A DNA stretch of 64,000 nt, from the sequence record MT129654.1. One strand, given 5' to 3'. The position numbers and the translations under genes were made by a program. The stretch comes from Escherichia phage MN04. The notes under the pieces are model-generated. The model made no database searches. It was not told the DNA's origin and saw only the letters and a program-made list of their open reading frames with translations. Numbering within the stretch: the stretch's first letter is position 1; every line of letters starts with the position of its first letter. This document shows, piece after piece, positions 2,877 to 62,784 of this stretch.

Positions 2877-3467
2877 ATGAACGGTTTATTTAACCAAACT
2901 AACACTACCAACTTTATCTTAGAGGTTAGTGACTCAGGAATGACGCAGTCATTCAAATTGAACGTACAAGATGTAACACTACCAGGTATCCATATTCCGG
3001 TCTCAGACGTCCCAGGATCGACCCAAGGTATAAACCGTGCTAAACTGCCAGGTTCTACTGTAGAATTCGACCCTTTGATTGTGAACTTTCTTGTAGACCG
3101 CGAATTGAAATCATGGCTGGACGTTTATAAATGGATGCTATCATTAAACAACTATGTAACACATGAATCCGAAGCCTGGCATCCTAAAGGTCAGCCTGAG
3201 GCTATCACCCTCCACATCCTTGATAACAACAAACAGAAAATCGTAATGAGCATTCATTACTACGGTGGTTGGCCATCAGACCTTTCCGAGATTCAGTACT
3301 CTTATAAAGAAGATTCCGACCCTGCGATAATCGCTACAGCAACATTCAACTTCAAATCGTTTGCTGTAGAAATAGATGGTACAATAGTTACAGGTCGTCC
3401 ACAAATTGATTCGTATGCCGAACAACGTGTGGCTCGTATGTCTATGCATCCATCTATGAGAAAATAA
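2877..3467 (+). CDS. 3: tail completion and sheath stabiliser gp3 (196 aa; alternative start at 2937 would give 176 aa)
   Basis: ATG 2877 preceded by SD tagga; stop overlaps gp1 start; synteny. Confidence 0.65.
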   Translation: MNGLFNQTNTTNFILEVSDSGMTQSFKLNVQDVTLPGIHIPVSDVPGSTQGINRAKLPGSTVEFDPLIVNFLVDRELKSWLDVYKWMLSLNNYVTHESEAWHPKGQPEAITLHILDNNKQKIVMSIHYYGGWPSDLSEIQYSYKEDSDPAIIATATFNFKSFAVEIDGTIVTGRPQIDSYAEQRVARMSMHPSMRK

Positions 3468-4220
3468 TGAAACTAATATCAATTGTAGGAATCAAACGTA
3501 GCGGTAAGGATACCGTTGCTAACTATGTAATTGAGAATATGGATTCCGTAAAATTCCAACTCGCTGGTCCTATTAAAAAGTATCTGGCTGAAGCTTATGA
3601 ATACATATCTGATGACCCTGTATTCGACCGTAGCTATATGCCTAAACTTGATTTTAACTGTTTTGAAGGTATCGGTTACGACCGTGAAGAAATCCTTCCT
3701 TTAAAACCATATGATGTGGTTGATATTTTTGAACATGCTATTGTTAAACTGAATAATATCCTTCCTATTCCAGGAATTGATGTTCTTACCGCATATCATT
3801 ATGGTCTTACCCCGGTCCAGTATCTGTCTGAAGAAACAAAAGACCAGCTATTTGAAGTAATAAATAAAAATAACAATTGGTCAGTACGTCGTCTCATGCA
3901 GACCCTTGGGACTGATATTATTGTTAACCAATTTGATAAGATGTATTGGGTTAAGTTGTTCGCTTTAGACTATTTTGATAAAATATACTCTGATGCGAAA
4001 TACTATGTCGTACCTGATGTTCGTCAAACACATGAAATTGATTCGCTCAGAGCGATGGGTGCTACGATTATTCATGTAGTTCGCGCTGAAACCGGTCAAG
4101 TACAAGACTCGCACATCACTGAAGCGGGTCTACCAATTTTACCTGGTGACGTTGTTGTTGAAAATAACGGCACTCTTTCTGAACTATACACCACTATTGA
4201 TAAATTATTAGGAAATAAAA

Positions 4221-4228
<8 letters not shown>
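3467..4228 (+). CDS. 1: deoxynucleoside monophosphate kinase gp1 (253 aa)
   Basis: N-terminus MKLISIVGIKRSGKDTVANYV...QLAGPIKK matches remembered T4 gp1 (P-loop GxKRSGKDT). Confidence 0.9.
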
Positions 4229-39238: not shown

Positions 39239-39796
39239 ATGACCGAAATTAAACTGACTAAAAATAACTATGTAAATAATAAGGAGCTTCTGAAAGCCAT
39301 TACCCAGTGGAAAACGGAACTCCGAGAAAATACCGACCCTAATAAAATAGTTCGTCAGAACGACGTTATCGGCTTGGCTATTATGCTCATTGCTGAAGGC
39401 CTTTCTAAGCGTTTCAACTTCTCCGGATATACCCAATCTTGGAAGCAAGAAATGATTGCTGATGGAATCGAAGCCTCTATTAAAGGTCTTCATAACTTCG
39501 ACGAAACAAAATACGACAACCCACATGCATATATCACTATGGCTTGTTTTAATGCCTTTGTTCAGCGTATCAAGAAAGAACGTAAAGAAATGGCAAAGAA
39601 ATACAGCTACTTCGTCCATAACGTTTATGACGCCAATGACGACGACATGGTAGGTATCGCAGATGAAACTTTTATCCAGGATATTTACGACAAAATGACT
39701 CAGTATGAAACCTCTTTAGTTAAAGCGCCAGGGTCTGATAAGAGCGCTGAATCTAAAGTTGGTGAGCTGGATTTTTTATATGGAACTCAAGATTAA
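39239..39796 (+). CDS. 55: late-transcription sigma factor gp55 (185 aa)
   Basis: ...[55 protein letters not shown]... matches remembered T4 gp55. Confidence 0.92.
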
Positions 39797-40007
39797 CCTG
39801 GTAGGCCTTTTAGAAGAAGTAGATGGAGAGTATTCGGCAATTCCTTATGTTCTTAAAATGTATCTTAAGGATATTGCCAAGCTTCCTATTGTAATAGACC
39901 CAAAACACCCTGATTCGGTAGAAATTAAAGCTGAAAAAGGAACATTAACTTATAACTATCACGTTACCGACGAAGATTTTTATATAAAACTGAATTACAA
40001 GGATTAA
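39780..40007 (+). CDS. hypothetical protein (75 aa)
   Basis: ATG 39780 overlapping gp55 3' end. Confidence 0.4.
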
Positions 40008-40008
40008 T

Positions 40009-40320
40009 ATGCAAAGCCATGACATTTCTCAATTGACTGATGAGCAAATTGAAGAAGCCCAGCAACGTTTAGAAGAGCACAATATTAAAGAAGCCAATTC
40101 GCAAGCGGCTAAGATTCTTAAGAAGAATGCTCGTGAAATCCGTCGTTTAAATCTCCATGCCCAAGGCGCTGTACTTGAAAACAACTTTGAAGCATATAAG
40201 TACGCTTTAATTAAATTACGCGGTATTTACCGTCAACCTGTTACTGATGAACTTGTTCAATTGATGTGGGAATCTACCCGCAAACAAATTTGGGAAATCG
40301 TCAATGGCTCTAGTAAATAA
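40009..40320 (+). CDS. hypothetical protein (103 aa)
   Basis: TAATATG-coupled ORF. Confidence 0.45.
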   Translation: MQSHDISQLTDEQIEEAQQRLEEHNIKEANSQAAKILKKNAREIRRLNLHAQGAVLENNFEAYKYALIKLRGIYRQPVTDELVQLMWESTRKQIWEIVNGSSK

Positions 40321-40504
40321 ACCCTTTAAACGGCTTCTTATTGGAGCCGCCTTCAGACTTCGCTCATACGGTAATATTTGTATTAAGCAGACCGAAACCG
40401 AATATAAAATGGTTGGGCAGTATTCCGATGAAATTTTTCGGATTGAGCCTGTAGCCAAGGTTTGGGTGGATTCACATCAACTTAAGAAGTGGTGGCAACG
40501 ATGA
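40304..40504 (+). CDS. hypothetical protein (66 aa)
   Basis: Overlapping ORF. Confidence 0.4.
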   Translation: MALVNKPFKRLLIGAAFRLRSYGNICIKQTETEYKMVGQYSDEIFRIEPVAKVWVDSHQLKKWWQR

Positions 40505-40592
40505 TAACATGGACAGGTGGCTAATGAAAGACGAACATCCGGATTTTTAAGCTATGAATGACGAATACGAAAAAGTTTAAGAGGTTTTATGA

Positions 40593-40766
40593 ATGACGAA
40601 TTCGATGGATTTTGATAAGATTAAATCTGACAAAAATGAGATGATACTTAAATTTGAAGCTGCTCGTATTAAAGCGGAAAATGAAGGTATTATTACCTAT
40701 AAGCCTATCAAGTTCAGGTCTTCTCATGAACCTCTGTATGGTGTATTAATTGGTAAAGGAGCTTAG
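40593..40766 (+). CDS. small protein (57 aa)
   Basis: ATG 40593 after SD gaggtt; followed by terminator; under the ORF-track cutoff. Confidence 0.35.
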   Translation: MTNSMDFDKIKSDKNEMILKFEAARIKAENEGIITYKPIKFRSSHEPLYGVLIGKGA

Positions 40767-40778
40767 GCTCCTTTTTTG
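40757..40778 (+). terminator. rho-independent terminator
   Basis: Hairpin ggagc-tta-ggctcc followed by TTTTTT. Confidence 0.65.
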
Positions 40779-40820
40779 CTTTATATTCGGATGATAAAAT
40801 GAACCAACTGAGGAGAACAT

Positions 40821-40964
40821 ATGGAATTACTTTTAGGATATGTCGTGTTATTCATGGCATTCTACACATTCACACGAGCCTGTTGGATAGGATTCTTTTC
40901 TACTCCTGATGGGTTCATCTCAATAATTTTATTTTGCATTGCGATAACGGTGCTCGGCTTATGA
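40821..40964 (+). CDS. small membrane protein (47 aa)
   Basis: ATG 40821 after SD gaggagaa; hydrophobic; stop overlaps gp47 ATG. Confidence 0.4.
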   Translation: MELLLGYVVLFMAFYTFTRACWIGFFSTPDGFISIILFCIAITVLGL

Positions 40965-50562: not shown

Positions 50563-50696
50563 AGATAATTATTTTATTTCTTATAATGGCTGCCTTTACC
50601 ATTTATTGGGCAGTGGCAATTCCTCCAATGATTCCAACATTAATCATGGGATGGATTATTCTTATAGCACAAATTAAGTATAACTGTTTTAATTGA
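50559..50696 (+). CDS. small membrane protein (45 aa)
   Basis: ATGA-coupled; hydrophobic; under the ORF-track cutoff. Confidence 0.35.
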   Translation: MKIIILFLIMAAFTIYWAVAIPPMIPTLIMGWIILIAQIKYNCFN

Positions 50697-50703
50697 GGAT
50701 ATT

Positions 50704-51204
50704 ATGAAAAAGTTAATTATCGCAATGAGTATGCTCCTATCAGGTTGCGCAGTCCAATACGGTGATGCAGTTTCGGCTGATGAAGTTGGTAAAGCTCGTA
50801 TCGCAGCTGAACAGAAACAATTCGACGGCGAAATGAAATTCCGTGCCGGTTCTGGACTTGTGTATACCCGAGCTAATAATCAATGTGGTAATAACTGTGC
50901 AAAATATGCTCAAAGGGAAATCGAATTCCAACGTGAACAAGAGTCTAAGCGTGAAGCGGTACTAGCCAAACACCAGGCAGAAATGAAGCGCCAAGATGAT
51001 TTGTACAAAAAGCAGAAACTGTATTCTATGTGTGTAAACCATATCAATTTACAGATTTCTGTCCATGAGGCTCGTTATTACGAAATGCTCGAAACCGAGA
51101 GCTTCGATAAGGCTCGTGATTATAAGAAACAAATCAACAAGCTTAAGACCAAAGTGCCTGCTGCAGTAGAACAGTGCATGGAATACGGTAAAGATAAGAT
51201 TTAA
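50704..51204 (+). CDS. predicted lipoprotein (166 aa)
   Basis: Signal peptide with lipobox LLSGC; charged coiled-coil-like mature part. Confidence 0.55.
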   Translation: MKKLIIAMSMLLSGCAVQYGDAVSADEVGKARIAAEQKQFDGEMKFRAGSGLVYTRANNQCGNNCAKYAQREIEFQREQESKREAVLAKHQAEMKRQDDLYKKQKLYSMCVNHINLQISVHEARYYEMLETESFDKARDYKKQINKLKTKVPAAVEQCMEYGKDKI

Positions 51205-51240
51205 GCAATAGAAATTTATTAAAAATAGTGTATAATGTAC
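51200..51240 (+). promoter_or_regulatory. candidate promoter for the modification operon (-10 only)
   Basis: TATAAT at 51231-51236 preceded by TG; no clear -35. Confidence 0.3.
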
Positions 51241-51264: not shown

Positions 51265-52938
51265 ATGAAAAAGGTTGTTATTTTAGGCGCAGGTCTTGGC
51301 TCACGGTTGTATCCAATTACTAACGAAATCCCGAAGGTATTGGTTAACTATAAACAACATACGGTATTAAAGCATTTGTATGATTTGTATAGTAACCAAT
51401 CAGATGAAATTATTCTGGTTATTCACAGCAAATTTAACGACCTCGTTAAAGGCTATATTAAATCCATTAACATGATTACTGGTGATAAGCCTAAATTCAC
51501 TATTCGTAACGTTGATGTTGCTAATGGTTCAGCTCATGCTATCGATTGCATTGCCGAAGATATCATTGGCCATAACGTCCTGTTTAACTGGTGTGACATC
51601 ATTCCTGAAGGTCATAAAGTTGAGTGGGGTAACGACTACTGTTATACCTATGGAACTGACTGTCGTTTTACATTTGAAGAACCGTACTTACGTGAAATTG
51701 GCACTGGTGGTGGCGTAGTTGGTTTATATCAGGTGGCTAATTGGACAGGTTTCGACCGTTCTAATTACGGTGAAGACCTTGCTGATAACCTGGATTCAAT
51801 GGTCTATTTGACTGAACGTAAACTGGACTTTGTAGTTGATGTCGGTGACAAATTGAAACTGGCTAAGGCCCATGAAGATTCTGAAATTAACCGTGAATTT
51901 AATAAATTAGAATTCACCGAGAATCTGGCTATTAAAGTACCAACTAACGAATTAGGTAAAGAAATTCAATCTAAAGAAATCAATTGGTATAATTCTATTG
52001 ATTCTGAATTCGTTCCTAGCATTGTAGACTTTTCTCCAGGCGAATTCATTAAAATGGAACGTATCTTTGGTCGGACCATGGCAGATGCCTACCGGTTTAT
52101 GTCCAAAGAAACTAAAGTCCTCATGGTTTATAAGGTCATTAGTGCATTACGTTCATTCGGTGGAACTATTGATAATCCGTCCGATGAACAATGGTATTCC
52201 GATGTTAAGAAAGAAGTATTGGACAAGGTCCTTATTCGTAATGCTTCTATTGCCGGATTGATTGAAGGCTTTGCTCCACAAGGCATTACCCATGTTAACG
52301 ATTTCAAAGTAGGCGACCCTGAAAAACTTCTCCGCCATGCACTAGAAATTCTGTCTGAACATAAAGAACCGTACCAACTTATTCATGGCGACCCACACTA
52401 CAGTAATATTATGCTGTCGGACGAAGGTGATATTAAAATCATCGACCCACGTGGTTATTTCGGTAATAGTTCTAAAGGCCCTGCGATTTATGATGAAGCT
52501 AAGGTGCTTTATTCTATCGATGGCTATGACAAATTTAACTCAGACCCTCTATGGGGTGGATTAACCCGTAACGGAACTCGTGTATTCGTTGATATTGAAA
52601 AGGTTATGCCTTTAGACGATATCCCTATGTGCACATTTAAGCACAAGCTCTGGATTGCTGTTATTTGGATGGCTCTGGCAGGTTACTTTAAGAATAACCC
52701 TCTGAAAGCTCTGGGTGCTTATTATAACGGTTTGTACCAACTGAGTGTGCTGCTGAAGCGGCATCCTCGTAAGCGTAAGCTTATTACAGGTGAATTTGTC
52801 GATGAAGTTCGTGACCCTATCACGGCCCAAATTATTACTCGTTGTCCTGATAAGTGGGTTTTGCTTGACCAGGAAACTGGTGTAAAATATAAACCTACAG
52901 GTTCTACTGAACTCCACAAACAATGGAAGAAAATTTAA
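51265..52938 (+). CDS. bifunctional sugar-1-phosphate nucleotidyltransferase (N-terminal) / APH-fold kinase (C-terminal), 557 aa
   Basis: N-terminus VVILGAGLGSRLYPITNEIPKVLV (GxGxRxxPxT...PKxLV signature of RmlA/LicC-type NTases); C-terminal HGDPHYSNIML and IIDPRGYFG (Brenner and DFG-like motifs of choline/aminoglycoside/anomeric-sugar kinases). Confidence 0.65.
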   Translation: MKKVVILGAGLGSRLYPITNEIPKVLVNYKQHTVLKHLYDLYSNQSDEIILVIHSKFNDLVKGYIKSINMITGDKPKFTIRNVDVANGSAHAIDCIAEDIIGHNVLFNWCDIIPEGHKVEWGNDYCYTYGTDCRFTFEEPYLREIGTGGGVVGLYQVANWTGFDRSNYGEDLADNLDSMVYLTERKLDFVVDVGDKLKLAKAHEDSEINREFNKLEFTENLAIKVPTNELGKEIQSKEINWYNSIDSEFVPSIVDFSPGEFIKMERIFGRTMADAYRFMSKETKVLMVYKVISALRSFGGTIDNPSDEQWYSDVKKEVLDKVLIRNASIAGLIEGFAPQGITHVNDFKVGDPEKLLRHALEILSEHKEPYQLIHGDPHYSNIMLSDEGDIKIIDPRGYFGNSSKGPAIYDEAKVLYSIDGYDKFNSDPLWGGLTRNGTRVFVDIEKVMPLDDIPMCTFKHKLWIAVIWMALAGYFKNNPLKALGAYYNGLYQLSVLLKRHPRKRKLITGEFVDEVRDPITAQIITRCPDKWVLLDQETGVKYKPTGSTELHKQWKKI

Positions 52939-53321
52939 TGTCGCATCGAGTAGAAAATAAGCCACATTTATGTTTTGATATCGATAACACAATCACGATT
53001 TGGAACCATGACCGTGATTATGAGAACTTTAAACCGGACACCGAAATGGTGTCCATGATTAATAAGCTTTATGATGAAGGGTACGAGATTACATTGTTCA
53101 CCGCGCGTGGCATGACTTCATGTGGCCCAGGTCGAATCTTGGTTGAAGTAGTTCCTGCATTGGTTAAGAACCTTGAAAAGATTGGATTGAAATATCATAA
53201 TCTGCTTACACATAAGCCGAGTTATACTTTTATCATCGATGACCGAGCAATCCGTCCCGACCACTTTAAAGAAATGGTTCGTGAAGGAACTCTTGATAGT
53301 TATAAGGCCTATCATCCATGA
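52938..53321 (+). CDS. HAD-superfamily phosphatase (127 aa)
   Basis: Motif I CFDIDNTIT (DxDxT), motif II TLFTAR, motif III HKPS, motif IV IIDDRA; TAATG coupling. Confidence 0.65.
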   Translation: MSHRVENKPHLCFDIDNTITIWNHDRDYENFKPDTEMVSMINKLYDEGYEITLFTARGMTSCGPGRILVEVVPALVKNLEKIGLKYHNLLTHKPSYTFIIDDRAIRPDHFKEMVREGTLDSYKAYHP

Positions 53322-53854
53322 ATCCAAAAATCATTGTTATAGACGGCCCGGATAATTCCGGGAAGTCCACTTTAATTAAAAATCTGTTATCCAATAAGAA
53401 ATACCGCCTTATTGATTTTCCTAAAAAGATTAATGGTAAGTGTATTTCATTAGGAACTGATAACGATAAGGCTTTAGTTGAAACTCTGTATAAGTTTTTA
53501 GACCCTAATTTCGTTTATATCCTTGACCGTGGTTATCCAAGTAATATTGTTTACTCAGGATTCCTTCGTGGTGAAATGGACCCTTATGTAGAACTGGAAG
53601 ATTGGAAAGGGTTTAAATCTGAATTTAACGTTATCGAGGTTATTTTAACTCGCAATCCATTAGACGAAGACTTCGAAGACGACCTTATTAAATTAACCAA
53701 AGATGAGTTCAACCTAACTATCCGGCAATACGAAACATGTTTTGAAAACGTGTTTAAAATCTTAAATCATGACGGCCATAATAATTTGCTTAATGTTGAT
53801 ATGGTAGAATTAAAACGTCTGAACGAATATATTGAAAATAAGGTGAATAGATGA
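53318..53854 (+). CDS. P-loop nucleoside monophosphate kinase, thymidylate-kinase family (178 aa)
   Basis: IVIDGPDNSGKSTL Walker A and ILDRGYPS...VYSG (DRY-like motif); ATGA coupling. Confidence 0.6.
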   Translation: MNPKIIVIDGPDNSGKSTLIKNLLSNKKYRLIDFPKKINGKCISLGTDNDKALVETLYKFLDPNFVYILDRGYPSNIVYSGFLRGEMDPYVELEDWKGFKSEFNVIEVILTRNPLDEDFEDDLIKLTKDEFNLTIRQYETCFENVFKILNHDGHNNLLNVDMVELKRLNEYIENKVNR

Positions 53855-54549
53855 AACACATTACCGCTGTTAGTTTTGAAAATGCATTTAAACAAATGAA
53901 CGAAGAAATCCTGGAAGCTCCACAGTTTGCAGTTGATTCTCGTATCGGACGTTGTTATGAAATTGGTTCTGCTTCGGTAGAAGTACTGGATGCAAGCACC
54001 TATAAATTCACCGATCCTCGTATTAATCGTATTAGTTATGAATATGCCGAATCTTTCTGGAAGTTTATGATTTCTGGTGGTACTGACGCCGCCGAAGCAT
54101 TTAAGGAATACCCTAATGTTGCTAAGTTCATTGATAAGCCGAAAAGTGACGTATTGCCTGCAAACTTCAACACTTTCTATGGACCTCGAATTGTGGCCCA
54201 ACTCCCAGCCTTACTTAAAGAGCTTAAAGAAAAGCCTAACTCAAGACGCGTTGTGTTCCAGATTCTCCAAGAACAAGACCAAGCCCTCCTTGATTCTGAC
54301 GAATCCTTAGAATATCCTTGCACCGATTCGGTAACGTATTATATTCGTGATGGACGTCTGTATGCACACACTCATATGCGTTCACAGAACTGTGCTATTG
54401 TTATGCAGCTGGATTTCTATCTGCAGGGTAAACTGATGGCATTTATTGCTGAACAGTGCGGTGTCGGTTTAGGTACATATTCCCACACCATGGTAAGTGC
54501 ACACGTGTTTGAACGTGATTTTGACTACGTCCGAGGTTTCCTGAAATGA
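53851..54549 (+). CDS. 42: pyrimidine hydroxymethylase of the thymidylate-synthase fold, positional and sequence counterpart of T4 gp42 dCMP hydroxymethylase (232 aa)
   Basis: NSRRVVFQI, YPCTDSV (catalytic Cys), MRSQNCAIVMQLDF with Asp at the position that is Asp in T4 dCMP hydroxymethylase and Asn in ThyA. Confidence 0.75.
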   Translation: MKHITAVSFENAFKQMNEEILEAPQFAVDSRIGRCYEIGSASVEVLDASTYKFTDPRINRISYEYAESFWKFMISGGTDAAEAFKEYPNVAKFIDKPKSDVLPANFNTFYGPRIVAQLPALLKELKEKPNSRRVVFQILQEQDQALLDSDESLEYPCTDSVTYYIRDGRLYAHTHMRSQNCAIVMQLDFYLQGKLMAFIAEQCGVGLGTYSHTMVSAHVFERDFDYVRGFLK

Positions 54550-55439
54550 GTTTGTTTATCGTTCCTATTTTCAGTATGCGTAGTTACGAAACAGGTGAAT
54601 ATGCCGTCCTTAAGGACGGCAATTTTCAACTCCATTTAAATCGTGCTCGTCCAGGTGATTATCTGGCTTATCCTAGAAATTCGAGCGATATCAAAGAATG
54701 CATTGAATTATTCCCAGATCTGAATTTCGTACCACTTTGGTATAAAGAAAATGCTTATGAAACCCGTAAACATTTCTGGTCTGAAAATGAGTTTGTAGTC
54801 GATTCACTAATCGAATACTACGATTGCTCAGGACTGGTAACCGATATCACTGGTTACGATGGTGCTCATACTGTACAATTCAACTTTAATATCACAATGG
54901 ACCCTGAAGTTCCTCGTTATTATATCGACGAGTTCATTGATATTGATGTGGCTTCAGTTGAACGTTCACTTTATACTACAGTCCTGAATCAATGCCAGAA
55001 AGACGTCTTGGTGTCACGAGGTGCATCCTCTGATAAGATTTTTGTAGACCAAAAGGTAATTAATCCTGCAGTAATTGAGCGTTACTCTGAAGGTCTAGCG
55101 CCTATTAAAATTGATGGTATTTTCCATCCATTCCGTATTTCAGATAAGTGTTATCAATTCGAAAGAGTTGTAGACCAAGCTGCCGCTGAAGGTGCTCGTC
55201 TTTATATCACCGATCCGAATGATTCATTTAAGCGCGAAGACTATCGTCCTGATGTAGAGATTATTAAATTCAAACCAAGTAAGGTTGAATATTATCAAAT
55301 TCTGAAATCAAGACCACATATCATTTATCATGAGAACCCAGGTTTAGTATTCCATCCTGGTCTGGCTGAATTCATTTATTTCGGTGCCAATATTCATTCT
55401 GAATACGAAATGCCACGTTATGAGGACGTAGTATGCTAG
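54546..55439 (+). CDS. unassigned 297-aa protein in the slot where T4 has beta-glucosyltransferase; candidate DNA sugar-transferase
   Basis: ATGA-coupled to the hydroxymethylase; no resemblance to remembered T4 bgt. Confidence 0.5.
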   Translation: MSLFIVPIFSMRSYETGEYAVLKDGNFQLHLNRARPGDYLAYPRNSSDIKECIELFPDLNFVPLWYKENAYETRKHFWSENEFVVDSLIEYYDCSGLVTDITGYDGAHTVQFNFNITMDPEVPRYYIDEFIDIDVASVERSLYTTVLNQCQKDVLVSRGASSDKIFVDQKVINPAVIERYSEGLAPIKIDGIFHPFRISDKCYQFERVVDQAAAEGARLYITDPNDSFKREDYRPDVEIIKFKPSKVEYYQILKSRPHIIYHENPGLVFHPGLAEFIYFGANIHSEYEMPRYEDVVC

Positions 55440-62262: not shown

Positions 62263-62784
62263 ATGGCTCATTTTAATGAATGTTCTCAACTGATTGCCGG
62301 TGCCGATAAAGCTGAAGAAGCTTATTTTAATGCTCTGATTCACGAAGATAAAGACCCTCTGCAGGTTATGCTTGATATGCAGAAATCTTTGCAGGTTCGT
62401 TTAGCTAAAGATAAGCCTGAATATAATCGTCATCCTGATGATTTGGCCACTGCGGGTGAAGTTGTCGATTGGCTTCGCAACCAGAAAGATTATATTGATG
62501 ACGAATTCCGTGAACTTCTGACTTCTCTTGGTGGTATGAGTAATGGTGAAAAAGATGCATCTGCAGTATGGAAGCCTTGGAAAGCTCAACATGCTGAACG
62601 TCGTGAAACCCTGATTAACGATTTGTCTCCTGAAGACCAGCTCGAAATTAAATTCGAAATGATTGATATTCTGCACTTTGTTCTGAATATGTTCCAGGGT
62701 CTTGGACTGACCGCTGAAGAAATCTTTAAACTGTATTACCTTAAAAATGCCGAGAACTTTGCTCGTCAAGACCGAGGTTATTAA
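62263..62784 (+). CDS. 56: dCTP pyrophosphatase gp56 (MazG-like, 173 aa)
   Basis: MAHFNECSQLIAGADKAEEAY...PLQVMLDMQ...DDEFRELLTSLG...EEIFKLYYLKNAENFARQDRGY matches remembered T4 gp56. Confidence 0.92.
   Translation: MAHFNECSQLIAGADKAEEAYFNALIHEDKDPLQVMLDMQKSLQVRLAKDKPEYNRHPDDLATAGEVVDWLRNQKDYIDDEFRELLTSLGGMSNGEKDASAVWKPWKAQHAERRETLINDLSPEDQLEIKFEMIDILHFVLNMFQGLGLTAEEIFKLYYLKNAENFARQDRGY

Follow-up and report, generated by a model that had tools for sequence, protein, structure and literature searches.

RB69 and JS98, two T-even phages, were found to carry a 'gene 42' but no glucosyltransferase, which was a puzzle at the time (Petrov et al. 2010). Thomas et al. (2018) described arabinose on RB69 DNA as arabinosyl-hydroxymethylcytosine (ara-hmC), proposed ORF53_52c and ORF055c as the UDP-arabinose enzymes, and named a Dhakavirus protein, IME08 gp43, as a homologue (PMC6024577). 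The ara-hmC assignment has been superseded (PMC13326640, PMC13390438); the base in RB69 and in Acinetobacter phage DLP3 is arabinosylated 5-hydroxycytosine (5hoC), not hydroxymethylcytosine (hmC) (PMC13326640). RB69 gp48, which has flavin bound, converts dCMP to 5-hydroxy-dCMP (5hodCMP) with O2 (PMC13326640). The sugar donor route is known from phage HY126 in the account that PMC13326640 gives of He et al. (2026). There, AfhE combines an arabinose-5-phosphate (arabinose-5-P) kinase with a UDP-arabinose pyrophosphorylase, and AfhF is the phosphatase between both steps, so that arabinose-5-P is converted to arabinofuranose (Araf)-1,5-bisphosphate by the AfhE kinase, to Araf-1-P by AfhF and to UDP-Araf by the AfhE nucleotidyltransferase. 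Comparative genomics extended the pathway to Dhakaviruses, among others (Lee et al. 2026; PMC13326640). Here we analyzed a stretch of 64,000 nucleotides (the window) from Escherichia phage MN04 (MT129654.1), in which a five-gene operon at positions 51265 to 55439 is very likely the Dhakavirus version of the arabinosyl-5hoC DNA hypermodification pathway of RB69, HY126 and DLP3. The pathway is already known; it was published between 2018 and 2026, and Dhakaviruses are already listed as carriers. A first-pass annotation of the window, made from the letters only, had regarded the donor enzymes as unassigned, which must be corrected: the family was named by Thomas et al. (2018) and, as far as the partly indirect accounts go, its functions come from He et al. 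(2026), Mahler et al. (2025) and Lee et al. (2026).

The window belongs to a JS98/JS10-type T-even phage of the genus Dhakavirus and is colinear over its entire length with JS10 13.2-76.0 kb. The 4.3-kb cluster region is 98% identical in nucleotide sequence to JS10 and JS98, and it is found with at least 80% coverage at an identity of at least 90% in 51 phage records. The five coupled genes that the first-pass annotation had placed between gene 43/imm and uvsX were found there, as follows.

51265-52938, plus strand: bifunctional nucleotidyltransferase/kinase, 557 amino acids (aa); open reading frame (ORF), homologue of RB69 gp53:52 and HY126 AfhE
52923-53321, plus strand: small HAD-superfamily phosphatase, 132 aa; ORF, homologue of RB69 gp51 and HY126 AfhF
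53318-53854, plus strand: thymidylate-kinase-like (TMK-like) P-loop nucleotide kinase, 178 aa; ORF, homologue of RB69 gp45 and DLP3 gp78
53851-54549, plus strand: thymidylate-synthase-superfamily dCMP 5-hydroxylase (predicted 5hodCMP synthase), 232 aa; homologue of RB69 gp48
54546-55439, plus strand: compact GT-B glycosyltransferase (GT1), 297 aa, fold predicted; homologue of RB69 gp47:46 and DLP3 gp79

Comparison of the interval between gene 43 and uvsX with those of T4 and RB69 showed one-to-one RB69 matches for all five proteins (38-80% identity) in the same polymerase-uvsX interval. The equivalent T4 interval contains imm.1, imm, 42, b-gt and segA; the first-pass annotation had named imm, 42 and b-gt correctly. 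It was also right that the polymerase is RB69-like, as the window enzyme is 84% identical to that of RB69 and 61% identical to that of T4. All five cluster proteins are full length when compared to their homologues and are therefore products of real genes rather than chance ORFs. The cluster combines a 5hodCMP synthase signature, a bifunctional nucleotidyltransferase/kinase, a HAD phosphatase, a GT-B transferase beside the thymidylate synthase (TS) gene and a TMK-like kinase. A phage arabinose-5-P isomerase and additional arabinosyltransferases (RB69 gp3, HY126 9iqz, DLP3 gp76-77) are missing from it.

The identity of the acceptor base is indicated by the 232-aa protein, which is 80% identical to RB69 gp48 (BLASTP) and matches the PDB entries 9iqu, 9iqc and 9ir2 (E 2e-126; 80% identity to 9iqc). 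It was aligned with T4 gp42, RB69 gp48 and E. coli ThyA, whose numbering agrees with the alignment. Cys146 is kept, position 169 is Asn (within RSQN, 166-169), position 177 is Asp, and the ThyA C-terminal region is missing. D169N is diagnostic for 5-hydroxy-dCMP synthases, all of nine additional natural enzymes with D169N yielded 5-hydroxydeoxycytidine, and N177D is associated with cytosine specificity (PMC13326640). T4 gp42, with which the protein shares 25% identity, retains Asp at ThyA position 169. The D169N substitution together with the 80% identity to RB69 gp48 therefore points to 5hoC as the acceptor base, and the 232-aa protein is predicted to be a flavin/O2-dependent 5hodCMP synthase, not a hydroxymethylase. 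The first-pass annotation had called it a gene 42-like hydroxymethylase and the base hmC, and both statements must be abandoned. A T4-like pathway, with hmC made by such a hydroxymethylase and a new sugar placed on the hydroxymethyl group, would agree with the membership in the TS superfamily, with the weak similarity to T4 gp42 and with the ara-hmC described in the 2018 RB69 paper (PMC6024577). It is nonetheless extremely improbable in view of the D169N signature, the missing C-terminal region, the 80% identity to enzymes with demonstrated O2-dependent formation of 5hodCMP and the later correction of ara-hmC (PMC13326640, PMC13390438). Neither the window nor the JS10 genome yielded a gp42-type hydroxymethylase. 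The PDB entries 9iqc, 9iqw and 9iqz form one consecutive accession block; 9iqz is labeled as a phage HY126 glycosyltransferase and is the orthologue of RB69 gp3 (E 5e-249). We assign the PDB matches of the 232-aa protein to HY126. This phage is unclassified in the NCBI taxonomy and is probably RB69-like, as suggested by the near-identity of 9iqc and 9iqz to RB69 gp48 and gp3.

The first two genes would supply the sugar donor. The 557-aa protein consists of an N-terminal nucleotidyltransferase domain (approximately residues 1-215) and a C-terminal APH-like kinase domain (Pfam NTP_transferase, 33.9 bits, and APH, 25.7 bits, each above cut-off), belongs to phrog_4098 (E 6e-269) and is 44% and 41% identical over its full length to RB69 gp53 and gp52, respectively (BLASTP). 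RB69 gp53 and gp52 are a single gene split by a sequencing error (PMC6024577), and the same is true of gp47 and gp46 (PMC13326640); deletion of one base from each split pair produced proteins of 561 and 299 aa. The nucleotidyltransferase, kinase and HAD motifs quoted in the first-pass annotation are all present in the cluster. Those of the 557-aa protein (G10/R14/K24 of GxGxR...PK, H374-G-D376...N381 and D394 of IDPRG) are invariant across 28 homologues. The 132-aa phosphatase is 62% identical to RB69 gp51, matches PDB 9iqw (E 5e-54) and carries the DxDxT (FDIDNT), K and DD motifs; its similarity to the NCBIfam model TIGR01689 (capsule-biosynthesis phosphatase; E 1e-14) is below that model's cut-off. 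The label 'phosphoheptose isomerase' that this phosphatase bears in RefSeq and PHROGs is a mis-annotation. By analogy with AfhE and AfhF, the 557-aa protein is predicted to be an arabinose-5-P 1-kinase and UDP-arabinofuranose pyrophosphorylase, and the 132-aa protein to remove the 5-phosphate from Araf-1,5-bisphosphate. A salvage route from a free sugar had been suggested for these genes, but the HY126 route starts from arabinose-5-P, according to the description of He et al. (2026) in PMC13326640.

Distant homologues of the 557-aa protein were observed among metagenomic proteins. Three of them (P0185, P0196 and P0211, 922-946 aa) carry HAD, SIS, nucleotidyltransferase and kinase domains in a single chain and extend the Butyrivibrio observation of Thomas et al. 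(PMC6024577). The SIS domain is of the arabinose-5-P isomerase type, and these fusions therefore tie the 557-aa family to arabinose-5-P chemistry. They would amount to a one-protein NDP-arabinose pathway, presumably in bacteria.

The last gene encodes the candidate transferase. The 297-aa protein is 69% and 65% identical to RB69 gp47 and gp46, respectively (BLASTP). Searches of Pfam, NCBIfam and PDB sequences returned nothing meaningful for it, and structure prediction alone was informative, showing a compact GT-B glycosyltransferase fold (pLDDT 94). The protein belongs to the family proposed as the base-proximal arabinosyltransferase 1. Its lack of resemblance to T4 b-gt, remarked on in the first-pass annotation, was borne out. 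A tblastn search (E<0.01) of the 64-kb window and of the complete JS10 genome, which recovered the five cluster genes, found no homologue of T4 a-gt or b-gt. The absence of a-gt between genes 47 and 55, also remarked on there, was likewise confirmed, this interval (39794-40960) being about 1.2 kb long. T4-like glucosylation by an a-gt or b-gt encoded elsewhere was rejected, since the search of the complete JS10 genome was empty. The GT1 family is acidic (median isoelectric point (pI) 5.2). Charge was considered as a criterion to distinguish DNA from nucleotide acceptors and was discarded as decisive, since an enzyme with a DNA acceptor, T4 a-gt, has an acidic pI (6.1) as well.

Two more genes of the window, located outside the cluster, would take part in the process.

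62263-62784, plus strand: gp56 dCTPase/dUTPase, accessory; 100% identical to JS10 gp56
3467-4228, plus strand: gp1 deoxynucleoside monophosphate kinase, accessory; 99% identical to JS10 gp1

In the proposed mechanism, gp56 would supply dCMP and keep dCTP out of the DNA, as it does in T4 (RB69 gp28 is listed as dCTPase; PMC13326640). The 232-aa protein would hydroxylate dCMP at C5 with flavin and O2 to produce 5hodCMP, a reaction demonstrated with the enzymes of RB69 and HY126 (80% identity). Then gp1, for which this activity was shown in RB69, the TMK-like kinase or both, followed by the host NDP kinase, would generate 5hodCTP to be incorporated instead of dCTP. Following the model of HY126 AfhE and AfhF, the kinase domain of the 557-aa protein would add a C1 phosphate to arabinose-5-P made by the host enzymes KdsD and GutQ, the HAD phosphatase would strip the 5-phosphate, and the nucleotidyltransferase domain would form UDP-arabinofuranose. 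The 297-aa GT-B enzyme, as proposed in the literature for its family, would finally move arabinose onto the 5-hydroxyl. The modification is expected to shield the DNA from restriction and CRISPR nucleases. The earlier suggestion of a self-contained gene set that both produces an activated donor and attaches its sugar to a modified cytosine, in a manner distinct from T4 glucosylation, is supported in outline, with arabinose, as in RB69, as the best candidate sugar.

Several points weigh against this interpretation. We found in the literature no chemical analysis of any Dhakavirus DNA, and the pathway details of He et al. (2026) and Mahler et al. (2025) are known second-hand. The same tblastn search of the window and the complete JS10 genome gave no homologue of RB69 gp55, the arabinose-5-P isomerase, and the 557-aa protein diverges most within its family, being 45-50% identical to all other lineages, which share 48-71% identity. 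The divergent enzyme and the absence of a phage isomerase mean that the sugar could differ. In that case the base would still be 5hoC, and the 557-aa enzyme would activate a different phosphosugar, such as another pentose, to give a non-arabinose glycosyl-5hoC. There is a precedent in RL38J1, where 5hoC bears galactose/glucose (PMC13326640), and the combination of TS homologue, GT1 and kinase is also found without nearby donor genes, as described below. We consider a different sugar unlikely, since the HAD phosphatase, whose role presupposes the 1,5-bisphosphate intermediate, is kept at 62% identity to RB69, the transferase is 67% identical to that of RB69, and 557-aa homologues that are equally distant (43-47%) belong to phages listed as arabinosylated, namely Serratia 92A1 (47%) and Shewanella Thanatos (43%; 561 aa). 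Moreover, E. coli itself makes arabinose-5-P, through KdsD and GutQ, for 3-deoxy-D-manno-octulosonate (KDO) synthesis. Because the host has these two enzymes, the phage isomerase is an accessory rather than a defining component and is probably inessential, and the Dhakavirus pathway is predicted to depend on host-made arabinose-5-P.

The transfer step is the other point on which evidence runs contrary to the arabinosyl-5hoC pathway. Single glycosyltransferases were inactive on 5hoC-DNA with UDP-Araf or with UDP-arabinopyranose, the first arabinosyl transfer was not reconstituted, and the authors were unable to tell whether it occurs at the nucleotide or the DNA level (PMC13326640). In addition, Thanatos TH1_063 (300 aa, encoded beside a TS homologue), which we identify as the homologue of the 297-aa protein from its size and its position, reportedly produced UDP-xylose in vitro when given UTP and xylose-1-P, and showed no transfer to DNA, dCMP or dCTP (PMC12838424). 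If the 297-aa protein were a sugar-1-phosphate uridylyltransferase of this kind, another protein would have to carry out the transfer. This is very unlikely: its predicted fold is GT-B and not the Rossmann-like nucleotidyltransferase fold, a canonical nucleotidyltransferase domain is already present in the operon, and JS10 yielded no further glycosyltransferase homologue. The acceptors tried with the Thanatos protein, furthermore, were not 5-hydroxylated.

Among the other components of the RB69 system, no homologues of gp50 (U32 family), gp49 or gp3 (the second arabinosyltransferase) were detected at the same threshold, whether in the window or across the complete JS10 genome. The slot between rIIA and gene 39, where gp3 is located in RB69, lies outside the window, so that the absence of gp3 in MN04 rests on the 98%-identical JS10. 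At the corresponding site, between rIIA.1 and gene 39, JS10 has an unannotated gap of 590 bp (L006:2437-3024) that holds a minus-strand ORF of 107 aa (2423-2746) with no similarity to gp3. The Dhakavirus set, as read from the sequence, is therefore minimal, with five genes, one transferase and no isomerase, and appears to be the leanest coliphage form among those compared. The number of transferases follows the number of sugars in known cases: Thanatos has one and is mono-arabinosylated, RB69 has two and carries mono- and di-arabinosyl forms, and DLP3 has three and is tri-arabinosylated (PMC13326640). As only one transferase is encoded, mono-arabinosyl-5hoC is predicted by analogy.

The 178-aa kinase is 38% identical to RB69 gp45 (E 7e-35) and belongs to phrog_761 (E 2e-39), its P-loop reads GPDNSGKST, TMK/CMK models match it at the P-loop level only, and a PDB sequence search gave no relative. 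The first-pass annotation had considered it an extra enzyme foreign to the T4 scheme that could act on a modified nucleotide. Counterparts do exist in the known clusters (RB69 gp45, DLP3 gp78 and RL38J1 gp214), and the second part of the proposal stands to the extent that a 5-substituted dCMP is the best guess for the substrate. The RB69 gp1 orthologue (gp159) turns 5hodCMP into 5hodCDP (PMC13326640). An unrelated contig of 383 kb (L010:6426-9576, GCA_040384225.1) has a cluster of a flavodoxin-like gene, a 107-aa ORF and homologues of TS (53% identity, RSQN present), GT1 (39%) and the TMK-like kinase (40%), and no nucleotidyltransferase/kinase, HAD or isomerase gene was found within 8 kb. This suggests a portable core of hydroxylase, transferase and kinase, perhaps with its own flavin reductase and a sugar donor from the host. 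The kinase, transferase and TS genes are also neighbors in RL38J1 (PMC13326640). Since the trio recurs in both places without donor genes, it looks like a conserved core to which an exchangeable donor module is added.

Another order of events was considered for this core. GT1 could arabinosylate 5hodCMP, the bulky product, which gp1 would not accept, could be phosphorylated by the TMK-like kinase, and an already glycosylated dCTP would then be incorporated by the polymerase. Such pre-replicative glycosylation is compatible with the occurrence of the trio without donor genes, with the fact that gp1 already covers 5hodCMP in RB69, with the failed transfers on 5hoC-DNA and with the acidic GT1. 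We assign it a small but real chance; if true, it would break with the T4 paradigm.

A more distant relative of GT1 (33% identity) was observed in an unrelated phage-like metagenomic contig of 26 kb (L011:7496-11220; Logan SRR22071707) that includes a DNA polymerase III alpha gene. The flanking genes encode a P-loop TMK-like protein, a GT47-like protein and a Peptidase_U32 protein that shares 51% identity with RB69 gp50, and no TS homologue was seen in the 17 kb examined. The U32 family includes oxygen-independent hydroxylases such as UbiU/UbiV, TrhP (ho5U) and RlhA (ho5C in rRNA). RB69 gp50 (Pfam Peptidase_U32) could then be an anaerobic route to 5-hydroxycytosine; it is listed as 'sugar or heterocycle reductase' in PMC13326640. 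The JS10 annotation lists no nrdD or nrdG.

The genes of the cluster are tightly arranged. The 557-aa gene was taken to start at the ATG that follows GAGGAACAGATA at 51265, upstream of which there is a Shine-Dalgarno-like GAGGA; a longer ORF begins at 51235. The overlaps at the four successive junctions are 16, 4, 4 and 4 nt, the last three being ATGA in each case. The start of the phosphatase is ambiguous (52923 or 52938), with alignments to RB69 gp51 and PDB 9iqw beginning at residues 7-8. The second ATG, at 52938, is preceded by GGAAG at about 10 nt, fits the RB69 N-terminus better and would give a 1-nt overlap with the upstream stop (TAATG) and a product of 127 aa, which may be the true one. 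The following site was identified about 30 nt 5′ of the 557-aa gene.

51209-51236, plus strand: promoter-like site TAGAAA-16-TATAAT; 10/12 matches, weak evidence

Promoter-like sites showed no excess between 50200 and 55700 (17, versus 18.9 expected from shuffled sequence), nor did terminator-like sites, and the same scan found no terminator-like site on the plus strand after 55439.

Upstream of the cluster are the DNA polymerase gene, imm (Pfam Imm_superinfect) and ORFs of 36 and 166 aa, and downstream is uvsX. The 36-aa ORF (50586-50693, plus strand), between imm and the 166-aa ORF, is 56% identical to RB69 gp54, annotated as 'similar to T4 42-imm intercistronic region', and is kept in JS10 as a hypothetical protein. 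The 166-aa ORF (50704-51204, plus strand) occupies the slot of the RB69 arabinose-5-P isomerase gene. It belongs to phrog_1754 (unknown function, E 2e-52), had no Pfam or NCBIfam match above cut-off, and has a pI of 9.0, a signal sequence at the N-terminus that closes with a lipobox-like LLSGC, and abundant predicted coiled-coil-like K/E/Q stretches. Its product may be a periplasmic or membrane lipoprotein, which beside imm would hint at superinfection exclusion.

In Dhakavirus GenBank and RefSeq records the five cluster genes bear inconsistent and mostly wrong labels. These include 'phosphoheptose isomerase', 'thymidylate kinase', 'thymidylate synthase', 'deoxycytidylate 5-hydroxymethyltransferase' and 'dCMP hydroxymethylase', as well as 'capsule biosynthesis protein', 'capsid and scaffold protein' and 'RNA polymerase binding protein'. 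The present finding rediscovers from raw sequence the pathway behind the 2010 puzzle, which was solved between 2018 and 2026, and its practical value is corrective with respect to these public records. The Dhakavirus set is also a convenient natural minimal system to study the first transfer, the role of the TMK-like kinase and the supply by host KdsD and GutQ. Oral phage studies have made use of JS98-type phages, and the modification is relevant to phage therapy and engineering as it affects sensitivity to restriction and CRISPR.

In comparison to known systems, T4 (gp42, a-gt, b-gt and host UDP-glucose) shares with the Dhakavirus cluster its neighborhood and its general logic, as a TS-superfamily enzyme adds a hydroxyl handle to dCMP and a GT-B enzyme adds a sugar. 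However, T4 uses folate-dependent hydroxymethylation while Dhakaviruses would use flavin and O2 for hydroxylation, the sugars differ, the transferases lack sequence-level homology, and donor synthesis is encoded by the Dhakavirus whereas T4 takes UDP-glucose from the host. Shewanella phage Thanatos (mono-pentosyl cytosine) resembles the window in having a single GT1-family gene beside a TS homologue and a nucleotidyltransferase/kinase of similar length, and it is stated to have the mono-arabinosylated state predicted for Dhakaviruses (PMC13326640). It is nonetheless a distant relative that infects another host, and its authors read the sugar and the enzyme roles differently (PMC12838424). DLP3 (gp76-gp83; tri-arabinosyl-5hoC) has the TS-type hydroxylase, transferase 1, TMK-like kinase, HAD phosphatase and bifunctional nucleotidyltransferase/kinase (PMC13326640), but it encodes three glycosyltransferases and its own isomerase, as opposed to one transferase and no isomerase in the window. 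The closest system is the gp45-gp55 region of RB69, with the Afh cluster of HY126 (Mosigvirus). Dhakaviruses do without the isomerase (gp55), the U32 protein (gp50), gp49 and the second arabinosyltransferase (gp3), their kinase gene precedes the TS gene instead of following the transferase gene, all five genes are translationally coupled, and imm and the 166-aa gene stand at the isomerase position. Both groups nevertheless share the slot between gene 43 and uvsX, the five protein families at 38-80% identity, the 5hodCMP synthase signature, the predicted GT-B fold of the transferase and the absence of T4 a-gt and b-gt.

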